A stretch of DNA of 41,293 bases. Source: a virus (lineage: Duplodnaviria > Caudoviricetes). The position numbers were made by a program, and so were the translations under genes. The stretch covers positions 1 to 41,293 of the IMG/VR virus record IMGVR_UViG_3300037510_000361; one strand, written 5' to 3'. Below the pieces are notes generated by a model. It did not search any database and was not told the origin of the DNA. It was given only the letters and a program-made list of their open reading frames with translations. Position 1 is the stretch's first letter. Every line of letters begins with the position of its first letter. Below, in pieces: positions 1 through 41,293 of this stretch.

Positions 1-226
1 GTCTGCACTGGGAATTTCCCCGGTACTATGAAAGGTGAAACACATGGCTACGACAAATACTGCCCAGACCAAGAATGCCCCGAAGGCTGCTGCCCAGACC
101 GCCGCTGCTCCGGCAGCCGAATCCAAGACGTTGCGCTTGCAGGTTGTGAAAAAGGACCTGAAATTCAAGGGCGCGCGGCAGGCGTGGTACGAGCGCCTGA
201 TTGCTGCCGACGGCAAGGAACAGAGC
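1..226. repeat. Terminal direct repeat / circular overlap, left copy
   Basis: Matches 41068-41293; first 127 nt identical, then 9 substitutions. Confidence 0.95.
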
Positions 227-358
227 GCGGTGCTGGCCGACCTGGAAGCCAAGCGCCCTTCGGTCTACGGCAGCAAGTCCAAGCACGCGGGCAAGCCCGA
301 GCCGGTTAGCGGTTGGGTCCGGTTCTTTGTGCGCAACGGGTATGTGAAGTTTGTCTAG
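44..358 (+). CDS. Small basic Ala/Lys-rich protein, putative DNA-binding; paralog of 28905-29306
   Basis: AAGGTG SD before ATG 44; shares KxxGxRxxW...DGK...SGWxRF motif with the 28905-29306 product; has its own promoter and terminator. Confidence 0.85.
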   Translation: MATTNTAQTKNAPKAAAQTAAAPAAESKTLRLQVVKKDLKFKGARQAWYERLIAADGKEQSAVLADLEAKRPSVYGSKSKHAGKPEPVSGWVRFFVRNGYVKFV

Positions 359-9901: not shown

Positions 9902-11254
9902 ATGGAACAAGAACTCGCAATTCTGAAGGTAGAGCCTTCCTGCAACACTTCTGACAAGAAGTTGCTGGCCAATCTAAGGTCAGCCCAAGAGCGAGATCTT
10001 AAACCTTTCCCATTCAGTTCTATACAGATTGAAAGACCAATCTTCATCTGTGGTAGTGGACCCTCTTTGATTGCGTACTATCTGGCTGCTCGCCAGATGT
10101 TTCCTGATCACGATGTCATGGCATTGAATGGAGCATACAATGCTCTTCTCTCTGTTGGCGTGATCCCCAAATTCTACGCTCAGTTAGATGCACGCCCCGA
10201 GAACGTCAATTTCATATCTGAAGCAAAGTATGAAACGACGTTTCTCATGGCCTCACAATGTGCTCCTGAGTGTTTCAAGGCTCTGGATGGATTCGATGTA
10301 AGAACCTATCACCTGAACACTCCTACGACTCGAAAGATCTTCACCAATGAGAAGATCTATTTCGGAGGTGGCTCAACCATCGGTACGACCGCGATGGGAT
10401 TGGCAGCCGCACTCGGGTATCGACGTCTTGGAATTTTTGGTTACGATTCTTCCTACAGCAGTGGGAAAAGTCATGTAAGATTTCAGCCGCAGAACGCCAA
10501 CGACAAGACTCTTCCAATCTTCGTCTACGGAAAAGAGTATCTCTCTACTCCTACGATGGCGAAGCAGGTAGAGGAGTTTCGTCCTTGGCTCCAGTCGCTG
10601 GAGAAGACTTTCCCGGGTATTGAGGTTTCACTGTTCGGTGAAGGTCTTCTGTACGACTACATAATTGGTGGACAGGCCAATACAGCCACGCGTGAAAGCG
10701 AGGCTGCGAAGTACACTGAGATGTATAAGGATCCTTCTTACGCGATGCCCCAGCATCGTGCAGACGCAATACGGGAAATTCTCAAAGATGTTCCAAGAGG
10801 TAAGCTGCTTGATGTAGGTGCAGGTCGTGGTGAGACGATTCGGATGGCCCAGGAGCTTGGATTTCCTGTAGTGGCTGGCACTGAGACAGTAGATGCTCTA
10901 ATACGCGAGGACTTGAATATCGGATATGGTCTTCTCCCCGAGTTGCCTGTACCCGACAAGTATTACGATGTCGTAACATGCTTTGAAGTCATAGAGCATT
11001 TGCTGCCGAAGGATGTGATCCCGGCCTTACGAGATCTTGCTCGTACTGCCAAGAGTCGTCTTATAATCTCCGCAGCTACGCGGTCTGATTTTCGTTCCGG
11101 TGTTGAGCTACATCCATCTTGGCGTTCTCAGTTTGAATGGGAGGAAACGTTCAAGGCTGCATGGGGTGGGGATGCAGATATAAGACTTCTCGGTAATCTA
11201 TCTTCCTGTGGACTGTCACCAGTTTATGAATATCGCGTGCGTCCTGCAGGTTAG
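9902..11254 (+). CDS. Fusion of a Maf/DUF115 (sialyltransferase-like) domain and a class I SAM methyltransferase
   Basis: ICGSGPSL, ALNGA and LGYRRLGIFGYDSSY motifs; C-terminal LLDVGAGRG and YDVVTCFEVIEHL. Confidence 0.8.
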   Translation: MEQELAILKVEPSCNTSDKKLLANLRSAQERDLKPFPFSSIQIERPIFICGSGPSLIAYYLAARQMFPDHDVMALNGAYNALLSVGVIPKFYAQLDARPENVNFISEAKYETTFLMASQCAPECFKALDGFDVRTYHLNTPTTRKIFTNEKIYFGGGSTIGTTAMGLAAALGYRRLGIFGYDSSYSSGKSHVRFQPQNANDKTLPIFVYGKEYLSTPTMAKQVEEFRPWLQSLEKTFPGIEVSLFGEGLLYDYIIGGQANTATRESEAAKYTEMYKDPSYAMPQHRADAIREILKDVPRGKLLDVGAGRGETIRMAQELGFPVVAGTETVDALIREDLNIGYGLLPELPVPDKYYDVVTCFEVIEHLLPKDVIPALRDLARTAKSRLIISAATRSDFRSGVELHPSWRSQFEWEETFKAAWGGDADIRLLGNLSSCGLSPVYEYRVRPAG

Positions 11255-11870
11255 TCCAGATTTCCGACCGGAGACGGTTGGATGGCTGCGCGCGCAGTGC
11301 GTGATTCATATTCCACATGATGAATTTATCTGCTATGCAAATGTGAATGGATTTACAAAGCGTCTTCAGACTAACTGGCCGAAGTGGTGGGCCAAGATGG
11401 AACTGTACCGAGACCTGAAAGGTCCAGTTCTTATCTTGGACCTAGATACAGTCATACTTCAGAAGTTCTCCCCTACGGATGAACAGTTGTCTCACTCGTG
11501 GGTGGCCAGACACTTCACTCGTGATGGATTTCGCGCTCCGGAAGAATTTTCATGTGGAGTAATGCTGACTACTGAGGAATTCCGTAAGAAGGTCTGGGAT
11601 CACTTTTCTTCGAACCCCGACAAGTTCATGACCGAGTGCAATGGCGACGATCAGGTATATTTCCGTCGTTATTGGAATAAAGAACTGAAGCGTTTTCAGG
11701 ATGAATGGCCTGACGCATTTGTCAGCTATAAGCTGAATGTTCTGCAACACGGTTTGACCGAGGATGCCACGTTCTTAGTTTTTCATGGAAAACCTCGTCC
11801 TTGGGACATTGACTCACCTTGGGTTCCAAAATGCTCGCACCCGGATCAATCTTTAGTTCAGGTCGTCTAG
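11226..11870 (+). CDS. GT-A glycosyltransferase (GT8-like)
   Basis: WWAKMELY, LDLD (DxD), GDDQ and VFHGKPRPW motifs. Confidence 0.8.
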   Translation: MNIACVLQVSPDFRPETVGWLRAQCVIHIPHDEFICYANVNGFTKRLQTNWPKWWAKMELYRDLKGPVLILDLDTVILQKFSPTDEQLSHSWVARHFTRDGFRAPEEFSCGVMLTTEEFRKKVWDHFSSNPDKFMTECNGDDQVYFRRYWNKELKRFQDEWPDAFVSYKLNVLQHGLTEDATFLVFHGKPRPWDIDSPWVPKCSHPDQSLVQVV

Positions 11871-13790: not shown

Positions 13791-15433
13791 TGCACATGTT
13801 CCCCAGAAGTGGAATGGTTCGGGCTTTGCCCTTGGCGACTGTCACTCCACAGTCTACAAAGTGCATCCCCGTACCTCCTCCCAATAAGGGAATCAATGCT
13901 GTTGATTCTCTAGTTGGGATGGCTCAAGATGAAGCTATATTCCTGAACAATCTTGTTCCTTCGCAGTATGGACCAAGAGTTCGTACCGGCTATCAAGACT
14001 GGGCTACTGATGTCGGCACAGACGGTGTTAGGACTGTGATTCCTTTCACTGGAGAATCTTCTTCCTTTGATCGTTTGTTTGCTGTCGCTTCCGATGGCAT
14101 TTACGATGTTAGCTCACCAGTAGCCACTCCATCCGTGCTACTAGCTCTTGCTTCTGTAGATTCTACTTCAGGGCTCGGGAATTGGGCTAACTTCGTAAAT
14201 GACAATGGAGACTACTTCTGTCTTTATTGTGATGAGACGAATGGATACTATGTCTATACCTCCTCTACAGACACGTGGGCTAAGATCGCCATGGGTGGAG
14301 GAGCTACCCAGATCTCTGGAGTAGATCCTGCGAACTTTGCTTATGTTCGCATCTTCAAGAATCGTGTGTGGTTCGTAGAGAAGGGAACTGGAAATGCTTG
14401 GTATCTGGCAGCAGGTGCCATCTATGGCGCGGCCACGAAATTCAACTTCGGTAACAAGTTCACACACGGTGGCTCACTTGTCGCTCTCTATAACTGGACC
14501 GTAGATGGGGGAGAAGGTGTAGACGACTACCTCGTTGCGATTGGTGCTGGTGGAGACGTCGTTGTCTACAAAGGCACCGATCCTGCTACGGCCACAGACT
14601 GGTTTCTCCATGGCGCTTGGTTCATTGGTCCACCTCCTTCTGGTAGACGTATAGCTGGCTCCTTCTCTGGAGAGTTGTATCTCTTGAGCTCCTATGGAAT
14701 CCTTCCCATGAGTCGTCTCATGAGCGGAACCTTGGTGCAGCTTGATGATGTGTACCTATCCAAGAAGATAAGTCCGCTGATCAATGAGCAGATGATTGCT
14801 AGCCGAACGACTTTGGGCTGGGAAATCAAGCTCATTCCCACAGAGAACATTCTTCTGGTTTCTACTCCCAAGAGGGAGGCGTTTGACTATACTCAGTTCG
14901 CCTACAGTCTGAATACTCCGGGCTGGTGCGTCTACAGAGATATCCCCTACTACACAGGCGACACGTGGAATGGTGGATTTTATATTGGCACTGAGGATGG
15001 CCGCGTAGTTCAGCATACTGGAAATCTAGACAACGTCAGCATGGATGAGTCTACGTTTGATCAGATTACTTGGTCTGCTCTACAGACTTTCCAAGAGCAA
15101 GGTGCTCCAGGTCACTACAAGAGAACTCATTTTATTCGTCCAGTGTTTCTGGCTTCAGAAGCTCCGTCATTTGCGGTGGAAGCCAGATACGATTACAATC
15201 TTTCAGAGGTCCTCCCCGCCCCGCAAAGCTCTGTTGGTCTTGGGTATCTATGGGATGCAGCTATATCCCTCTGGGATCTTGCAACTTGGGGTGGAGAGTT
15301 TGTCGTCGTACAGGACATCGTTGGTGCTTCGGGTATGGGCAGAACCATCGCCGTCGGGCTGAATGGTTCATCCGCCGTGGAGACCATCCTGGTCCGATAC
15401 GACATTATGGTCGATCAGGGTGGAATGATATGA
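13790..15433 (+). CDS. Tail nozzle / DNA stabilisation protein (P22 gp10 / T7 gp12-like)
   Basis: Beta-propeller-like composition, 547 aa, after the adaptor. Confidence 0.75.
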   Translation: MHMFPRSGMVRALPLATVTPQSTKCIPVPPPNKGINAVDSLVGMAQDEAIFLNNLVPSQYGPRVRTGYQDWATDVGTDGVRTVIPFTGESSSFDRLFAVASDGIYDVSSPVATPSVLLALASVDSTSGLGNWANFVNDNGDYFCLYCDETNGYYVYTSSTDTWAKIAMGGGATQISGVDPANFAYVRIFKNRVWFVEKGTGNAWYLAAGAIYGAATKFNFGNKFTHGGSLVALYNWTVDGGEGVDDYLVAIGAGGDVVVYKGTDPATATDWFLHGAWFIGPPPSGRRIAGSFSGELYLLSSYGILPMSRLMSGTLVQLDDVYLSKKISPLINEQMIASRTTLGWEIKLIPTENILLVSTPKREAFDYTQFAYSLNTPGWCVYRDIPYYTGDTWNGGFYIGTEDGRVVQHTGNLDNVSMDESTFDQITWSALQTFQEQGAPGHYKRTHFIRPVFLASEAPSFAVEARYDYNLSEVLPAPQSSVGLGYLWDAAISLWDLATWGGEFVVVQDIVGASGMGRTIAVGLNGSSAVETILVRYDIMVDQGGMI

Positions 15434-15879
15434 TGAAATCAGTTGAGCCAGCAACTGCCGAAGATCTTACAATTCTGTGTCAACTTCTGGGGTACAAACC
15501 CCACTCCGATATGAAGGGTATCAAGCTCGTCATTGACGGAGAAATTGGAGCCATGACGGGTTACGATGGGTGGACAGAGAATTCGGTTGTCATGCACATC
15601 TGGATCAAGCCAGGAAGCATGGTGGATCGTGAATTCGTAAGAGAGGCATTCAGGTATCCGTTTGAGATCGGTAATAGGGGGCTTGTACTCGGGGTAATAC
15701 CCGGCTATAATGCTGCCTCGTTGACTCTAGCCCGAGCAATTGGGTTCAGAGAGACGTATCGAGTGAAAGACGGCTATGCCGCTGGAACCGATCTGGTCAT
15801 CCAGGAAATGCGACGCGAAGAGTGTCGTTGGTTGACAAGAGGATCGGCTAGTGGGCAAGAACACTCCGGACGCACCTGA
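15430..15879 (+). CDS. GNAT-fold virion assembly protein (DUF2824 / T7 gp13-like)
   Basis: F.YPF and N.AS..L...IGF GNAT motifs; canonical position after the nozzle gene. Confidence 0.8.
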   Translation: MMKSVEPATAEDLTILCQLLGYKPHSDMKGIKLVIDGEIGAMTGYDGWTENSVVMHIWIKPGSMVDREFVREAFRYPFEIGNRGLVLGVIPGYNAASLTLARAIGFRETYRVKDGYAAGTDLVIQEMRREECRWLTRGSASGQEHSGRT

Positions 15880-24380: not shown

Positions 24381-24413
24381 AAGAAAGCCCGGTCTAGCGA
24401 ACTAAACCGGGCT
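24381..24413 (-). terminator. Rho-independent terminator of the leftward arm
   Basis: AGCCCGGTTTAG-TTCG-CTAGACCGGGCT then TTCTT on the minus strand, at the convergent junction. Confidence 0.8.
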
Positions 24414-24560
24414 CTCAGGGCCTTCTAGCTTATCTGTTCACCGCTGGGGCGGCTTCACAGACCGTCAACGGAGCCGGGACTCCTGTGGTGGTATCTTGGG
24501 CTAGTTCTTACTCTCGGGCTAGGCCGCCCTCCTAAAGGAGGCGCATCCCAGGACCTCCTT
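24414..24560 (-). ncRNA. Candidate structured ncRNA B
   Basis: Non-coding, several nested complementary segments (see findings). Confidence 0.4.
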
Positions 24561-24565
24561 CATAT

Positions 24566-24814
24566 CTACATTTGTTCTACTGAAACCCCCTCCTGCGCCA
24601 TCGGATCAACACGCCAGAAGGAACTCTTCCTGTCCCAATTCAGAGAAGTCGCTACAGGCGGACCCTCAGACTCCCTGCCTACTACGACCATGAGTGCGCA
24701 GATGCTCTTCTCATCTGAGTCCTTAAATTCCTCTGGCGGAGTTACCTTGGCATCATTTATTGCCTTCGCAACCGCATGACTGTATTCATGAAGAATCAAA
24801 TTTATGTCTTTCAT
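24566..24814 (-). CDS. Hypothetical protein
   Basis: GAGGGAG SD before ATG. Confidence 0.7.
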   Translation of the reverse strand: MKDINLILHEYSHAVAKAINDAKVTPPEEFKDSDEKSICALMVVVGRESEGPPVATSLNWDRKSSFWRVDPMAQEGVSVEQM

Positions 24815-24944: not shown

Positions 24945-25337
24945 TTATCCATTTCCTGGCGGAATACCTCCTGCACCGTACTCCGTTTCAAGCTCTATCA
25001 GCTTCTGAAGGAAGTGTTGGGCTTTTTCCAAATCCTCTATTCCCTTCTTCTTGGGATATCGCTCCACATACTTCGTGATGCACCCCACGAAATACCCGCG
25101 ACCATAGAGTCGCCACTGACGGTCCCAGTGCTCCTCCCCTCCCGTCTTGTAGTGACTTCCCCCTACCTGACGGTCGTTGGCTTGGCGGATGAATGGCCCA
25201 CAGTTTCCGGCATCGGGCTGCCCCTGATACCCTTCATGTTCAGAGGCAGGAGCTCCACACTCACGGCAGGCTGAACCGTCGTTGAGAATCCCACCATTCG
25301 ACTGATTTTGATATAGAGCGCAAGGCTTTTTGGCCAT
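24945..25337 (-). CDS. DUF3310 / T7 gp1.7-like nucleotide kinase domain with an N-terminal Zn-binding motif
   Basis: QVGGSHY, GCITKYVERY.KK.G.EDL.KA.HFL signature; C...CxxC...H N-terminus. Confidence 0.85.
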   Translation of the reverse strand: MAKKPCALYQNQSNGGILNDGSACRECGAPASEHEGYQGQPDAGNCGPFIRQANDRQVGGSHYKTGGEEHWDRQWRLYGRGYFVGCITKYVERYPKKKGIEDLEKAQHFLQKLIELETEYGAGGIPPGNG

Positions 25338-25352
25338 GATGTATTATACCCC

Positions 25353-25859
25353 TCAAAAGTTTCCAGGTGCTACCTGAAGGCAAGTGAACCCTTCGCGACG
25401 CCAAGCGTCTACGACCCTCTGACGATCTTCAAGAACGAACAGAATGTCCCTTTCGAATCCTTTGACCCATGAGACCTTAAGGACATGATCGTCTACTCTG
25501 TTGTCCACTGGTCTTAGTTTTATGATATCATATGGAACGTCATGTTTCCTCAACCATTCTATCGTCTTCTCCTCTACTGCGGCGCTTCTGCCTGAAAGAA
25601 TACGAATCTCGTATTTCTTCGAGAGTGCCCGCAGAATCTCGACAACTGGTTCGTTGACTTCGTCACTCAAGCATTCGGCGAAGTAGTCGTCCCAGTTGTG
25701 CCAGAGCCCTTTGCCACGACACTTCGGGCAACTGAATTCTGGCATCTTGGTAGGACTTTCTTTATGACACTCACACTTCAAGTGCAGATGTCTCTTAGCC
25801 CTCTTATGATCAAGAGCTATAGTGCCGTCCAAATCAGCTATGACAATCTTACTTTTCAA
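25353..25859 (-). CDS. HAD phosphatase (T4 PNK 3'-phosphatase-like) with a Zn-finger insertion
   Basis: DLDGT, LSGR, EDR..VV..WR..G..CLQVA.G.F; CECH...CPKCRGKG insert. Confidence 0.9.
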   Translation of the reverse strand: MKSKIVIADLDGTIALDHKRAKRHLHLKCECHKESPTKMPEFSCPKCRGKGLWHNWDDYFAECLSDEVNEPVVEILRALSKKYEIRILSGRSAAVEEKTIEWLRKHDVPYDIIKLRPVDNRVDDHVLKVSWVKGFERDILFVLEDRQRVVDAWRREGFTCLQVAPGNF

Positions 25860-26808
25860 CTTTCATTCTCCTTTCTAACCACTCATTACCTGCGACTTGC
25901 CAGTCCTGTGCCATACAGAGCACACTCGTGTCTCGCTGCATGAACTTTCTGTAGAACGGTTGCGCCACGTTCAGGAACCAGTTTGTTCGCCACCCACTTA
26001 TTTCCGGAGTTAGTATGAATTCTTCCGAGTCCCTCAAAAAGTCTTGTAGTTTCTCTCCCTCGCCCAGGAGTGGAAATGGTTTCAGCTTCGCCGTTGCATA
26101 ACGATCATCTCGGACCTTGCACTTGTCCATGATTTCCTGAAACCGAGGCATCTCAGGGTACACATGGAGGTTCGTTGTGAACACCCGATAAACTCCGGTA
26201 GGGACGCCAATGGCGCGAGAGATTAGTTCGTGCAGCATTGTCATGTGGACTGCATTGGCTCCGAACATCCCCCAGATCATGTCGTTTGAACGATTTACGA
26301 CAGTCATGTCCAAAGAACCAAGCACCATGCGGAACATGATCTGGGTGTTACAGGGGAGATCCTTGCTGGCTATTCCCAAGTCTAGAGTTGGACTCCACAT
26401 CGCCATGACTGCCCGGCGTTCGCTCTTATTTGACGTCAGCATAGCTACGATATGTTGTATCTGGTCACACCCGAACGCCTTGCGCCAGCGATGCCCATAA
26501 GCTGCATGGAAGATATGTCCATCATCGCTGTACTCGGCCATGCGCTTGTTGAATTGAGAAAGCCATGCAACCTGATTTGACCCTGCCATCATCCAAATAA
26601 ATTCCATCATATGGAAAAATGGGTTCGCATCCCTGTAGGGATCAAACAGAACTCGTTCTTCTGGATGTGTAATCTCCAGACAGAATGGATTCGTAATAGT
26701 CAAGACTGGACCATTCCGTGAACTCTCCTTCTTGGCCAGAATGGGAAGAACTTCCACCATTTCGGCGAAAGCCCTCGGTATATTTCGCTCAGTAATCCCG
26801 TGAATCAT
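25849..26808 (-). CDS. Thymidylate synthase homolog, probable dUMP hydroxymethylase
   Basis: SRNG, NPFF, YGHRW, catalytic PCN, RSND..WG..GAN (Asn = dUMP specificity), NLHVY. Confidence 0.85.
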   Translation of the reverse strand: MIHGITERNIPRAFAEMVEVLPILAKKESSRNGPVLTITNPFCLEITHPEERVLFDPYRDANPFFHMMEFIWMMAGSNQVAWLSQFNKRMAEYSDDGHIFHAAYGHRWRKAFGCDQIQHIVAMLTSNKSERRAVMAMWSPTLDLGIASKDLPCNTQIMFRMVLGSLDMTVVNRSNDMIWGMFGANAVHMTMLHELISRAIGVPTGVYRVFTTNLHVYPEMPRFQEIMDKCKVRDDRYATAKLKPFPLLGEGEKLQDFLRDSEEFILTPEISGWRTNWFLNVAQPFYRKFMQRDTSVLCMAQDWQVAGNEWLERRMKVEK

Positions 26809-27620
26809 CCGTTGTACCCTCTCTTGCTTCGACCAGTGCCAGTTCGTACTCTACAGTATTTGTCAAATTCGCACAAACAGTTCTGTAAATCCTGGTTGCA
26901 CATCTTCACAGGACAGTTCTTGTCTATGAAGTCACGAACTATCTGGAATCCTCCCTGGAACCCCGTAGTAGTCATCATATCAGGTCTGCCGTGGGTGAAC
27001 CACGAAAGTCCACGTATGCTCCCAGGTCCGGGGGCCACGAAAGTCCACCAATCCTCTGCTGTGTAGAGCGGATGCCACTCGGTGTTTTTCAGGTCTGCGA
27101 CTACCTGTGCAGCCAGGAACGATCCCAGCCCCTCGAGCCCCTGGAGCCGCTCATGCATAGCCCTGCATGTGGGTAGCGCCCCATATGAACGGAGCGCCTG
27201 TAGGCTTCGATACGCGCCCCCGAGCACGTTCTGGGCTAGGTACCGGGCTTTCGACATGGGTATGCCGTGAGTCGTAATCACATAGGCATTTCCCCATGTT
27301 CCAGGACGAGACATGATGTCTTCAATTCTGTCTGGGTTATGATCCAACAAATACCCGATCTCCTCAAGAGATGATGGTTTATTCACAAACCTGGAGAGAA
27401 CGATGTTGTACTCGAACATAGGATCATAGACAAACGGACTGTAGAACTTACGTATCCATTTCGTGACCTTGTCGTCCTCCCGGTGGACGTTGCAGAAATA
27501 GGTCGTTTTGAATACTGGATCATCGCTCCATGGTTTCGGCTCACCAGCCTCTTTCTTAACGCGGATCCTTTCGCGTTCTTCAATCCAGTACAATAGAGCA
27601 TCAGCGTACTGCTGGTTCAT
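26805..27620 (-). CDS. aGPT-Pplase1 / 5-hmdU DNA kinase helical-domain protein
   Basis: ERE.IR..KE.G..KPWSDDP......FCNVHREDD, GLGSFLA.QV..DL, GPGS.RGL, QN.LCEFDKY.R. Confidence 0.85.
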   Translation of the reverse strand: MNQQYADALLYWIEERERIRVKKEAGEPKPWSDDPVFKTTYFCNVHREDDKVTKWIRKFYSPFVYDPMFEYNIVLSRFVNKPSSLEEIGYLLDHNPDRIEDIMSRPGTWGNAYVITTHGIPMSKARYLAQNVLGGAYRSLQALRSYGALPTCRAMHERLQGLEGLGSFLAAQVVADLKNTEWHPLYTAEDWWTFVAPGPGSIRGLSWFTHGRPDMMTTTGFQGGFQIVRDFIDKNCPVKMCNQDLQNCLCEFDKYCRVRTGTGRSKRGYNG

Positions 27621-28849
27621 TCTGGCCACCTTCCTGTTTCAAGGTTAGGATATATTCCGGCGGGCTTCCCTGCTGCCAGATCGAGATATTGTAGACTTGT
27701 CCTTTTATAGTCAAAGTGCTCTTTAAGGATCTCACGCCCATTGGCGATGATTCGTTCGACTGTTGCAGATGATAGATCAAGACACCAATCAATCGCCGTA
27801 GCAACGTCTTCGTAGTCCGAGGAAGCTGGTATGCCGATGTGGGTCTCTCCGTGTTTGAAGAGTTGTCGCTGCATTCCTTCATCGAGCATGTTCTCCACTG
27901 TGCAGAGGGGGAGCATCCCAGTATTGTAGGCTTCTATGACACTACGGTTGAAGTGATTTCCCAAGGCGTAGAACTTCTTGGAGAACGACATGTCTACCAT
28001 GAGTTGAGTAGATATGTATCTGGAGAACAGCTCTGAATGAGTCATCAATCCGAAATAAGCGAATTTGTGAGTGTTCTTTCTGGCTGCTCCCCAAAGCCCT
28101 GGATATTTCACCTTGTTGGGGTCTGGAGAAGCCATGTAACGCCGTTCGATTCCGTCTCCAGCCATCCACAGGAAAGTATTCTCACAGATAAGCGGTGCCG
28201 CTCCGACCACCTTCTCCATGTGCTTCCATGCTTTCCACACATGAGCACAGCAGGCAGTTCTGTGTCTCCTACCCCACGGGATATCGTTCGTCCAATCCCT
28301 TACTTCGTGGGCGGCTCCGATGAAGGCCCTTGGGATAGGACACCACTCAAGAGCTTTATAACCTGCTGGATTCGTGCAGGTAATGGCGGTGATTCGGTCG
28401 GCGACTTCTCTAATATGTGGATACATGTCTCTAAAGTGTGCGTCGTGAGCCGCGATAATTTGGACTGGTCTGATGTCGTAGATATCTCTCCAGTCGTAGT
28501 TCGTCTCATCCACGAGTTTGGGCCCGGGGATTTCGTGGATAACAAGATCATATCCATTTGCAAAAGACTGCCATGCTCGGATACGTGCTGGGCTCCCATA
28601 GCCCATGACCGGAATTCCATACCACCCTGCGAGGGTATTAGCTTGACCCCCACTGACTGAAGTGTACGAACCAGTCGGTCCTTCTGGCTTTCTGATATAG
28701 ACATCTCTATCAGAATCCCGCAAAAGGACAAGATCAACGTGGTGTCCATGTTCTTTCAACCCCTTCATAAGAAATTCGACGTCACCTACAATTCCACCAT
28801 AGTCCTGGATTTCAAATAGAGTAAGGAGTATTTTCAAGTTTTTCTCCAC
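27617..28849 (-). CDS. GT-B fold glycosyltransferase (DNA-modification associated)
   Basis: N-terminal GGI......L.KGL...GHHVDLV, WK.WKH, F.R.VIEAY..G GT-B motifs; coupled to the kinase-like gene. Confidence 0.8.
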   Translation of the reverse strand: MEKNLKILLTLFEIQDYGGIVGDVEFLMKGLKEHGHHVDLVLLRDSDRDVYIRKPEGPTGSYTSVSGGQANTLAGWYGIPVMGYGSPARIRAWQSFANGYDLVIHEIPGPKLVDETNYDWRDIYDIRPVQIIAAHDAHFRDMYPHIREVADRITAITCTNPAGYKALEWCPIPRAFIGAAHEVRDWTNDIPWGRRHRTACCAHVWKAWKHMEKVVGAAPLICENTFLWMAGDGIERRYMASPDPNKVKYPGLWGAARKNTHKFAYFGLMTHSELFSRYISTQLMVDMSFSKKFYALGNHFNRSVIEAYNTGMLPLCTVENMLDEGMQRQLFKHGETHIGIPASSDYEDVATAIDWCLDLSSATVERIIANGREILKEHFDYKRTSLQYLDLAAGKPAGIYPNLETGRWPE

Positions 28850-28853
28850 AAAT

Positions 28854-28884
28854 GAAAAGAGCCGAGCATCTCTGCTCGGCTCTT
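28854..28884 (-). terminator. Rho-independent terminator
   Basis: 12-bp perfect stem AAGAGCCGAGCA/TGCTCGGCTCTT with a T-run on the minus strand. Confidence 0.85.
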
Positions 28885-28904: not shown

Positions 28905-29306
28905 TCAGGCAGCAGCGGCTGCCTCGGCCGGGGCTCCACCCTCCAGCTTCACGCTGCCATCCAGAACGTAGAAGCGCAGCCAGCCCGAGGGGGTCTGGAC
29001 CGTGCCCTTTCCGTTCGTGCGTCCCTTCATGGCCTCGTTGAATTCGCTGACCTTCTTGCCGTCGAACTCCTTGACCTTCGCAAACCAGTCTGCGCGCTGG
29101 CCACGATACTTCACTTCCTTGTCCGGCACGATGCGAATCGTTGCGTTCACCGAGTAGCCATAGTTCCCACGCGGCTTGGCTTCCTTCTTCTCCTTCGGAG
29201 CCTTGGGTTCCTTCGCAGCCTTGGGCTCCTTGGGAGCTTTCGCTGCGGCGGCAGCCTTCGTCGGAGGAGTCAGATCGGGTGCAGTCTTCGGAGCGGGATC
29301 GCTCAT
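28905..29306 (-). CDS. Basic histone-H1-like tailed protein; paralog of 44-358
   Basis: AGGAG SD; KAPKEPKAAKEPKAPKEK tail; shared C-terminal domain. Confidence 0.85.
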   Translation of the reverse strand: MSDPAPKTAPDLTPPTKAAAAAKAPKEPKAAKEPKAPKEKKEAKPRGNYGYSVNATIRIVPDKEVKYRGQRADWFAKVKEFDGKKVSEFNEAMKGRTNGKGTVQTPSGWLRFYVLDGSVKLEGGAPAEAAAAA

Positions 29307-29354
29307 AATAATCTCCTGAATTGTTGGACCTGTCAAAACACTTGACAGATATGA

Positions 29355-41067: not shown

Positions 41068-41293
41068 GTCTGCACTGGGAATTTCCCCGGTACTATGAAA
41101 GGTGAAACACATGGCTACGACAAATACTGCCCAGACCAAGAATGCCCCGAAGGCTGCTGCCCAGACCGCCGCTGCTCCGGCAGCCGAATCCAAGCCCCTG
41201 CGCCTGCAGGTGGTAAAAAGGGACCTGAAGTTCAAGGGCGCGCGGCAGGCATGGTACGAGCGCCTGATTGCTGCCGACGGCAAGGAACAGAGC
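41068..41293. repeat. Terminal direct repeat / circular overlap, right copy (variant allele)
   Basis: Matches 1-226 with 9 substitutions, all after position 127. Confidence 0.95.

Follow-up and report, generated by a model that had tools for sequence, protein, structure and literature searches.

The 41,293-nt window analyzed here, that is, the whole stretch of DNA at its full length, is a complete phage genome whose minus strand carries a putative thymidine hypermodification operon at 24945-28849. We consider it probable that this phage synthesizes hydroxymethyl-dUMP (hm-dUMP), depletes T, incorporates 5-hydroxymethyluracil (hmU) through its polymerase and then O-glycosylates hmU directly on the DNA with a GT-B glycosyltransferase (GT). 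A thymidylate synthase (TS) homologue would make hm-dUMP from dUMP, a HAD phosphatase and a DUF3310 protein would remove dTMP and dTTP, host kinases would make hm-dUTP, and the phage polymerase would put hmU in place of T at replication. The GT would then flip hmU out and move the sugar of a host nucleoside diphosphate (NDP)-sugar onto the 5-hydroxymethyl oxygen, with no phosphorylation step. UDP-glucose would be the simplest guess for the donor, since no sugar-synthesis gene was recognized, and the purpose of the modification would be protection from host nucleases. The window is a minimal version of such a system, its operon having a single GT and lacking tailoring genes.

The genome has a CheckV completeness of 100% and a terminal repeat of 226 bp, in which bases 1-226 recur at 41068-41293 with a few mismatches between the copies. 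The operon comprises five neighbouring minus-strand open reading frames (ORFs) at 27617-28849, 26805-27629, 25849-26808, 25353-25859 and 24945-25337; the first four overlap, and the fifth, coding for the DUF3310 protein, begins 15 bases past the stop of the HAD gene. Upstream of the operon lie the genes of DNA polymerase A, of an exonuclease and of an SNF2 helicase. The first ORF is open from a GTG at 28849 and likely starts at the TTG at 28837; it encodes the GT-B protein (27617-28837), a predicted DNA hmU O-glycosyltransferase. The second (ORF2) is open from a GTG at 27629 and likely starts at the ATG at 27620, giving a protein of aGPT-Pplase clade 1 (PF18723) with an HhH fold (26805-27620); both starts were chosen from ribosome-binding sites and the alignment consensus. 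The TS homologue follows (25849-26808), a predicted dUMP hydroxymethylase by its PF00303 match, its likeness to gp58 of phage M6 and its signature residues, and then a HAD phosphatase of the PNKP type (25353-25859; PF25109), putatively a dTMP 5'-nucleotidase, and the DUF3310 protein (24945-25337; PF11753), a putative nucleotide-pool enzyme in the same position as M6 gp61. A preliminary description of this DNA had already seen a complete genome with five adjoining minus-strand genes, the first four overlapping, and had named a GT-B enzyme, a TS homologue with Asn at the dUMP-specificity position, a HAD phosphatase and DUF3310; the repeat, the ORF coordinates and the evidence given below bear these assignments out.

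The window GT itself has no match in Pfam, PHROG or NCBIfam. Its AF2 model adopts a GT-B fold (pLDDT 94.9), and 33 of 60 aligned relatives match a GT-B Pfam family at E<=0.01. We collected 151 homologues; the GT alignment was needed to find relatives, the single-sequence scan of viral contigs having returned none, and the GT was likewise not found when 185,579 prokaryote genomes were scanned. In a Foldseek search of the model, GT4 enzymes came first, followed by T4 alpha-glucosyltransferase (AGT; 1y6f, TMq 0.62, E 9.4e-13), and AGT clusters made up 8 of 30 ESM Atlas matches (score 0.99). None of the 60 GT members matched PF11440, the T4 AGT family, at E<=0.01, and an hhalign comparison of the family with T4 beta-GT covered 39 columns only. 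Residues H135-D136, W208-K209 and G233-I-E235 are invariant and R302-S303..E306 near-invariant; in an alignment that is itself weak (P 0.045), these motifs align with AGT H114-D115, W208-K209, G233-x-E235 and R303-S304..E311, and AGT E306 has no clear counterpart in the window GT. The likeness of this uncatalogued GT-B family to T4 AGT is thus weak and no more than suggestive. AGT and the GT4 enzymes are retaining, and because of this the sugar link made by the window GT would probably be alpha.

The TS homologue matches PF00303 (E 1.9e-19) and shares 41% identity with M6 gp58 along its whole length. It contains the motif RSND..WG..GAN with Asn185, which lies at the position of ThyA N177; Asp150 lies at the position of ThyA L143, and Cys153 is the catalytic cysteine. 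As described in PMC13326640, specificity for dUMP comes from Asn at ThyA position 177, and hydroxymethylases are recognized by an acidic residue at position 143. The Asn and Asp pair was also present in M6 gp58, PaMx11 gp51 and SPO1-like gp29; in T4 gp42, Asp takes the place of the Asn. Among non-redundant relatives, Asn was found in 73/73 and Asp in 68/69 scored sequences (4/73 were unscored). The TS homologue is thus predicted from its residues to be a dUMP hydroxymethylase that makes hm-dUMP. In one relative (L009:14013-16073), the TS homologue is split by an intein with an HNH-like domain.

We then compared the operon with its relatives. The HhH protein has relatives on 377 viral stretches, of which the best 80, a set biased towards relatives of the window, were kept. 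The usual order in these loci is helicase, small basic protein, a variable slot, HhH protein, TS, HD or HAD, and DUF3310. Among the best 80 of 377 loci, the module included a TAGT GT-A (PF20691) in 58, a P-loop kinase (PF18748) in 12, the GT-B of the window in 7 and none of these in 3; merging at 90% identity left 57 loci, with 38, 9, 7 and 3, respectively. Slot labels refer to the fetched locus, and in three kinase loci the kinase precedes the TS instead. A kinase and a GT never occurred in one locus, either among the 57 non-redundant loci or among all 116 loci bearing aGPT-Pplase1. In whole records (42 chosen from the loci; 23 at least 90% complete, 5 of those GT-B), PF18748 was found genome-wide in 6/8 kinase-type, 0/16 GT-B, 0/17 TAGT and 0/1 other records, and PF18724, the clade-2 transferase family, matched 1/42. 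As GT and kinase are mutually exclusive among relatives and in most cases occupy one and the same slot, it is the kinase that the GT replaces, and not the amino acid transferase as had been proposed in the preliminary description. On a FastTree phylogeny, the slot label switches at least 18 times over 72 TS sequences (shuffled mean 27.9, minimum 19); this count left out four rows with GT-B plus TAGT, three unlabelled rows and four reference rows, and the tree, in which deep nodes are weakly supported and the branch of T4 gp42 is long, was used only for counting slot changes. The TAGTs of sister slots carry the motif R..DDD..EDF, and Pyle et al. (bioRxiv 2023.12.21.572611) matched this GT-A phage group to the base J glucosyltransferase JGT. 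Three unrelated enzymes swapping in one slot are most simply explained by one shared acceptor, the hydroxyl of hmU. Among other records with related genes, the cultured Microbacterium phage QuadZero (L178) carries a PF18723-like gp54, a TS and two GTs nearby, and PhiJL001 and MW202897 (L171, L172) carry a TAGT and the window's TS type, the annotation placing no HhH gene directly between these two genes.

The wider GT family was examined in 89 loci, the window included, whose GT is 300 residues or longer; they fell into 41 clusters, 32 close and 9 distant. The close clusters, several of which are short contigs, contained the HhH gene in 25 cases, a TS in 22 and a kinase in 0. Six distant clusters adjoin a TET/JBP dioxygenase in T4-like phages and three adjoin HhH and TS genes; one of these three has a GT-HhH fusion of 837 aa (L042:9953-12466; GT-B plus PF18723 domain). 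This fusion (L042/L043) adjoins a TS homologue, and L042 also has a cytidylyltransferase-like gene. In the T4-like phages (L016-L041), the immediate neighbour of the GT is a long TET/JBP dioxygenase of 450-480 aa. These dioxygenases share a YPRIPY motif with 5mYOX177, 178 and 188, which are listed in PMC13229309 as T-dioxygenase constructs, 177 with its ParB yielding about 8% hmU. With either a dioxygenase or a TS beside it, the GT family thus pairs with two separate hydroxymethyl-pyrimidine sources. In the 11 TET-type GT fragments (6-49% complete), neither a C5 methyltransferase nor PF18723 was found.

Larger clusters add a TAGT (8/32), a sulfotransferase (9), APS kinase (8), UDP-galactopyranose mutase (8) or FkbM methyltransferase (6), which point to a further tailored sugar; the window operon has none of these genes. 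L003, L004, L005, L006, L009 and L012 combine TAGT, sulfotransferase, APS kinase and UDP-galactopyranose mutase, which suggests sulfated galactofuranose on DNA; the cultured phage RSL1 exemplifies this type of cluster with its TAGT-like GTs, sulfotransferase and APS kinase. A P-loop gene resembling APS kinase in these larger clusters might have been a hidden 5-hydroxymethyldeoxyuridine (5-hmdU) DNA kinase (5-HMUDK), a reading that was rejected, as the gene matches Pfam APS kinase, not PF18748, and adjoins a sulfotransferase. PfkB kinase, SIS isomerase and cytidylyltransferase-like genes follow the TS-DUF3310 block in L142, L143, L152, L154, L158 and L129, which suggests phage-made heptose or similar sugar donors.

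ORF2 is a clade-1 HhH paralogue of amino acid:DNA transferases and is not kinase-like. It matches PF18723 (HMUDK_hel) with E 1.4e-29 and 103.8 bits, against a curated cut-off of 25, and is 28% identical to M6 gp55 (E 7.5e-29) and 27% to PhiW-14 gp72. Its AF2 model is all-helical (pLDDT 94.8), and no Walker A match was found in it. Foldseek returned no significant match for the model; in VIA-align, the top 25 rows were all of HhH type, with HhH glycosylases among the superposed folds. As reported by Lee et al. (PMC8989533, Table 1), 5-hmdU kinase activity belongs to P-loop proteins, among them M6 gp54, and the transferases are clade-2 aGPT-Pplases, among them gp51. M6 gp54 matches PF18748 and M6 gp51 matches PF18724. 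The complete window genome has no match at E<=1 to PF18748 or to PF18724, a profile that did match another record, and tblastn with M6 gp51, gp52, gp53 and gp54 gave nothing significant in the genome. Likewise, no radical SAM (rSAM), PLP or flavin tailoring gene was found in the window operon. The preliminary description was thus right to call this protein aGPT-Pplase1 and wrong to call it kinase-like, a misreading that arose because PF18723 bears the Pfam name "5-hmdU DNA kinase, helical domain"; as a kinase label, that name is misleading. Its statement that the genome lacks a recognizable transferase or tailoring gene holds for PF18724 and for homologues of gp51, gp52 and gp53, and the search that it proposed for an amino acid:DNA transferase among the genome's ORFs found none of clade 2 (PF18724 at E<=1); it does not hold for ORF2, a clade-1 paralogue that keeps the cysteine of the transferase motif. 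In the literature searched, which left subscription journals mostly outside, no activity was reported for aGPT-Pplase clade 1. In PMC13092281, aGPT-Pplase is listed among predicted, unvalidated bacterial defence domains.

The HAD protein matches PF25109 (HAD_PNKP, E 1.5e-22), and its gene occupies the place of the HD/YfbR-like 5'-deoxynucleotidase in M6 (gp59) and in many relatives. The DUF3310 protein matches PF11753 (E 2.8e-8), ESM Atlas returned DUF3310 only, and its cluster (c3) is present in 67/168 sequences examined. We infer that the two proteins deplete the thymidine pool by removing dTMP and dTTP.

Several results weigh against direct glycosylation of hmU by this GT. No cultured phage with this GT-B family was found: tblastn against 50,697 annotated phage records with the window GT, a distant T4-like member and the fusion protein left the GT part unmatched. 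Non-DNA GT4 enzymes rank above AGT in the Foldseek search, the hhalign match of the family to T4 AGT is weak (247 columns, P 0.045, probability 1.2%), and the GT profile (A1) found no GT among PDB sequences, only chance matches. The kinase search missed 2/8 positive controls, so that a divergent kinase is possible; only 5/16 GT-B records are at least 90% complete, and the TET-type GT records (n=11) are 6-49% complete. In the 8/32 close clusters with a TAGT, the GT-B protein could be a second, chain-extending enzyme, and in the window a second GT in the head-gene block could add to the product. Moreover, neither a dNMP kinase nor a dCMP deaminase was recognized in the window (Pfam, PHROG, NCBIfam, tblastn). 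Complex prediction for GT and HhH protein scored 0.00 in both runs and was not used as evidence.

The alternative that survives best, though we hold it to be unlikely, is that the HhH protein is the real transferase. Its cysteine would add to C6, an exocyclic methylene would form and a nucleophile would be attached; the GT would make that nucleophile or prime hmU, and the outcome would be a final base of greater complexity than glycosyl-hmU. Consistent with this notion, the ORF2 motif QDLQNCLCEFDK aligns with the transferase motif NIQEVETILCKWK, which puts Cys250 on Cys247 of the transferase PUGT, a residue proposed to attack C6 (PMC11472151), and Cys250, Glu251 and Lys254 are invariant in 51/51 sequences. 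PUGT (8z2m) also tied first in VIA-align, with a Z of 10.1 that, according to the tool, is possibly only middling for helical proteins (rmsd 4.2, 211 aligned). The fusion of GT and aGPT-Pplase1 and the presence of the latter in 25/32 close GT clusters argue in the same direction, as do three complete kinase-type genomes of 39-44 kb (L098, L116 and L163; records G017, G018 and G021) with a P-loop kinase, a clade-1 HhH gene and a TS and with no clade-2 transferase. The DNA of these three phages may end at phospho-hmU, or clade 1 may be the transferase there. However, the profile comparison of the two motifs alone is not significant (P 0.16), and the position four residues ahead of the Cys, at which clade 2 depends on a Glu, holds Gln246 in ORF2 and Gln in 46/51 sequences (M6 gp55 and PaMx11 gp50 keep Glu). 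Gln or Glu at this position was rejected as a marker of slot type, since it does not track with it. A hydroxyl or a glycoside is also a poorer leaving group than phosphate, the TET-type GT fragments have no aGPT-Pplase1, and M6 gp55 was found by Lee et al. to be dispensable for the first transfer product (PMC8989533).

Under the favoured direct O-glycosylation, we predict that the clade-1 HhH protein acts on hmU-DNA by flipping out the base and using its cysteine as the nucleophile, with a job independent of the group added. Because it tracks the TS-type hmU module whatever group is added, we read it tentatively as an editor that would swap the substituent of the C5 methylene for another or take it off, a possibility that we rank first while holding it short of probable; a role as a transferase appears doubtful, and both it and a non-catalytic binder rank behind the editor. 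The minimal operon of the window bears on the role of clade-1 aGPT-Pplase, which is present in M6, PaMx11 and PhiW-14.

It is improbable that the phage has plain hmU DNA, like SPO1, with the GT acting on a virion protein, a host surface glycan or a similar target. The top Foldseek matches are indeed small-molecule and glycolipid GT4 enzymes, and another GT lies among the head genes; against this, the GT gene overlaps the aGPT-Pplase1 gene, is fused to it in a relative and interchanges with a DNA kinase, and the family pairs with TET/JBP in unrelated T4-like phages. Among the head genes, 9902-11254 encodes an MptE-like domain (MptE-like/DUF115 fused to a SAM methyltransferase, with a weak match to the flagellin-modification protein PseD), and the second glycosyltransferase (phrog_1962) follows; this plus-strand cassette (9902-11870) is likely to serve virion-protein glycosylation. 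The fusion was found in 0/5 GT-bearing related records, two of them near complete, in a search without a positive control.

Still less probable is that ORF2 phosphorylates hmU in DNA before the GT acts, giving glycosyl-phospho-hmU or a mixture of phosphorylated and glycosylated bases, as in the preliminary description. The Pfam name of PF18723 would speak for it, as would the glycosylated, linker-bearing T derivatives of SP-15 and YerA41 (PMC13697223), and the MptE-like domain is the sole kinase-like candidate seen. Yet ORF2 is an all-helical HhH protein without a P-loop, the motif of the kinases of Lee et al. (PMC8989533), kinase and GT never co-occur in loci, and the MptE-like domain was rejected as a substitute kinase, given its absence from the GT-bearing records in that uncontrolled search and its position beside another GT among head genes. 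Of the preliminary reading, replacement of T by hmU and a base-J-type sugar on hmU-DNA find support; the phosphorylated products do not, as no enzyme for them was found in the genome. Finally, that the TS homologue makes dTMP or hm-dCMP, with the GT glycosylating hydroxymethylcytosine (hmC) as in T-even phages or having no DNA substrate, is scarcely credible: its best PDB sequence match is the CMP hydroxymethylase MilA (E 1.6e-16) and the GT resembles the hmC enzyme AGT, but Asn185 is not Asp, Asp150 is not Leu, the likeness to M6 gp58 extends over the whole length, and in sister phages this TS is accompanied by a 5-hmdU kinase.

Among the 57 non-redundant loci from the best 80 of 377, 45 are of the sugar type and only 9 of the kinase type, and direct attachment of sugar to hmU may therefore be a common, unmeasured DNA chemistry. 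If such an activity exists, a DNA glycosyltransferase specific for hmU could serve to label this base. A bolder and rather unlikely extension is that the phage makes base J in its alpha-anomeric form, or a different alpha-glycosyl-hmU, at many T positions through a new AGT-like family, that the clade-1 HhH protein is a covalent editor shared by the kinase, GT-A and GT-B routes, so that thymidine hypermodification in phages would be reversible, and that phage pairs of this type were the source pool of the kinetoplastid J system.

Around the operon, terminator-like hairpins lie immediately upstream of the GT gene (28857-28884, minus strand) and past the operon end (24383-24416, minus strand); hairpin counts in the window are not above those of shuffles (4 found, 4.7 expected), and promoter counts are also at chance. 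An 82-aa ORF at 24566-24814 (minus strand), taken from the ORF list and without a family match in Pfam, PHROG or NCBIfam, may close the operon. The slot is bordered upstream by a small Ala/Lys/Pro-rich protein (28905-29336, minus strand), and in most 40-kb relatives a similar small protein (clusters c4, c83) separates the helicase from the slot. Another Ala/Lys/Pro-rich protein with a similar basic motif (35-358, plus strand) begins within the terminal repeat. Elsewhere, an Acyl-CoA N-acyltransferase-like ORF lies among the tail genes (15070-15879, plus strand), and TCGA is the rarest tetramer of the window relative to expectation (0.65).

The closest known systems are the clusters of M6 and PaMx11 (PMC8989533), which have the same core order of modifier, aGPT-Pplase1, dUMP hydroxymethylase, nucleotidase and DUF3310; the M6 counterparts of the window core are gp55, gp58, gp59 and gp61. 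Unlike these clusters, the window has no P-loop 5-HMUDK, no clade-2 transferase and no rSAM, PLP or flavin tailoring genes; its GT-B gene sits where gp54 sits in M6, and a HAD protein replaces the HD nucleotidase. The combination of 5-HMUDK and clade-2 transferase that defines the M6, ViI and PhiW-14 pathway is thus absent from the window genome. In the literature consulted, the characterized hmU hypermodification routes begin with phosphorylation by 5-HMUDK. An aGPT-Pplase1 without a kinase was noted in RP13 (PMC13697223), and the cultured Ralstonia phage RSL1 (ORF230-238; L169) carries aGPT-Pplase1, the same TS type, TAGT-like GTs, a sulfotransferase and APS kinase, with no match to the window GT-B in RSL1. 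SP-15, YerA41 and Carin-5 have a sugar on the T-position base, as predicted here, but on long linkers, at C5 in SP-15 and YerA41 (PMC13697223).

T4 AGT, which acts on hmC DNA, has the same GT-B fold, collinear HD, WK, GxE, RS..E and G..P motifs in a weak alignment, and is likewise paired with a TS-family hydroxymethylase; in contrast to T4, the window hydroxymethylase has the dUMP signature, and the T4 pathway as published has no aGPT-Pplase1 partner. T4 beta-GT, for its part, can glucosylate hmU in vitro (PMC4111573). In the work of Pyle et al. (bioRxiv 2023.12.21.572611), TET/5mYOX-associated phage GTs of both GT-A and GT-B type act on a hydroxymethyl-pyrimidine in DNA, like the predicted window GT, although the sugars were shown on hmC, unlike the hmU predicted here; GT-B/ThyS co-occurrence was counted there computationally. 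Distant members of the window GT family adjoin TET/JBP genes whose products share a motif with T-dioxygenases (PMC13229309). Such TET/JBP and GT pairs in T4-like phages follow the same two-step logic as JBP and JGT in kinetoplastids. Neighbourhoods of the window's kind were reportedly predicted by Iyer et al. in 2013.

Direct O-glycosylation of hmU is known from kinetoplastids, in which base J is a beta-linked glucosyl-hmU; in the literature searched, no measured O-glycosyl-hmU in a phage was found. Base J is made by JBP1/2 and then JGT, and the window is predicted to reach the same O-glycosyl-hydroxymethyluracil in DNA. The two differ in that hmU would come from a nucleotide-level hydroxymethylase here, not from oxidation of DNA, and in that the window enzyme is a GT-B protein with a probably alpha link, not a GT-A protein with the motif R..DDD..EDY/F (PF20691). 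Sister phages of the window carry a JGT-like TAGT in the very slot that holds its GT.

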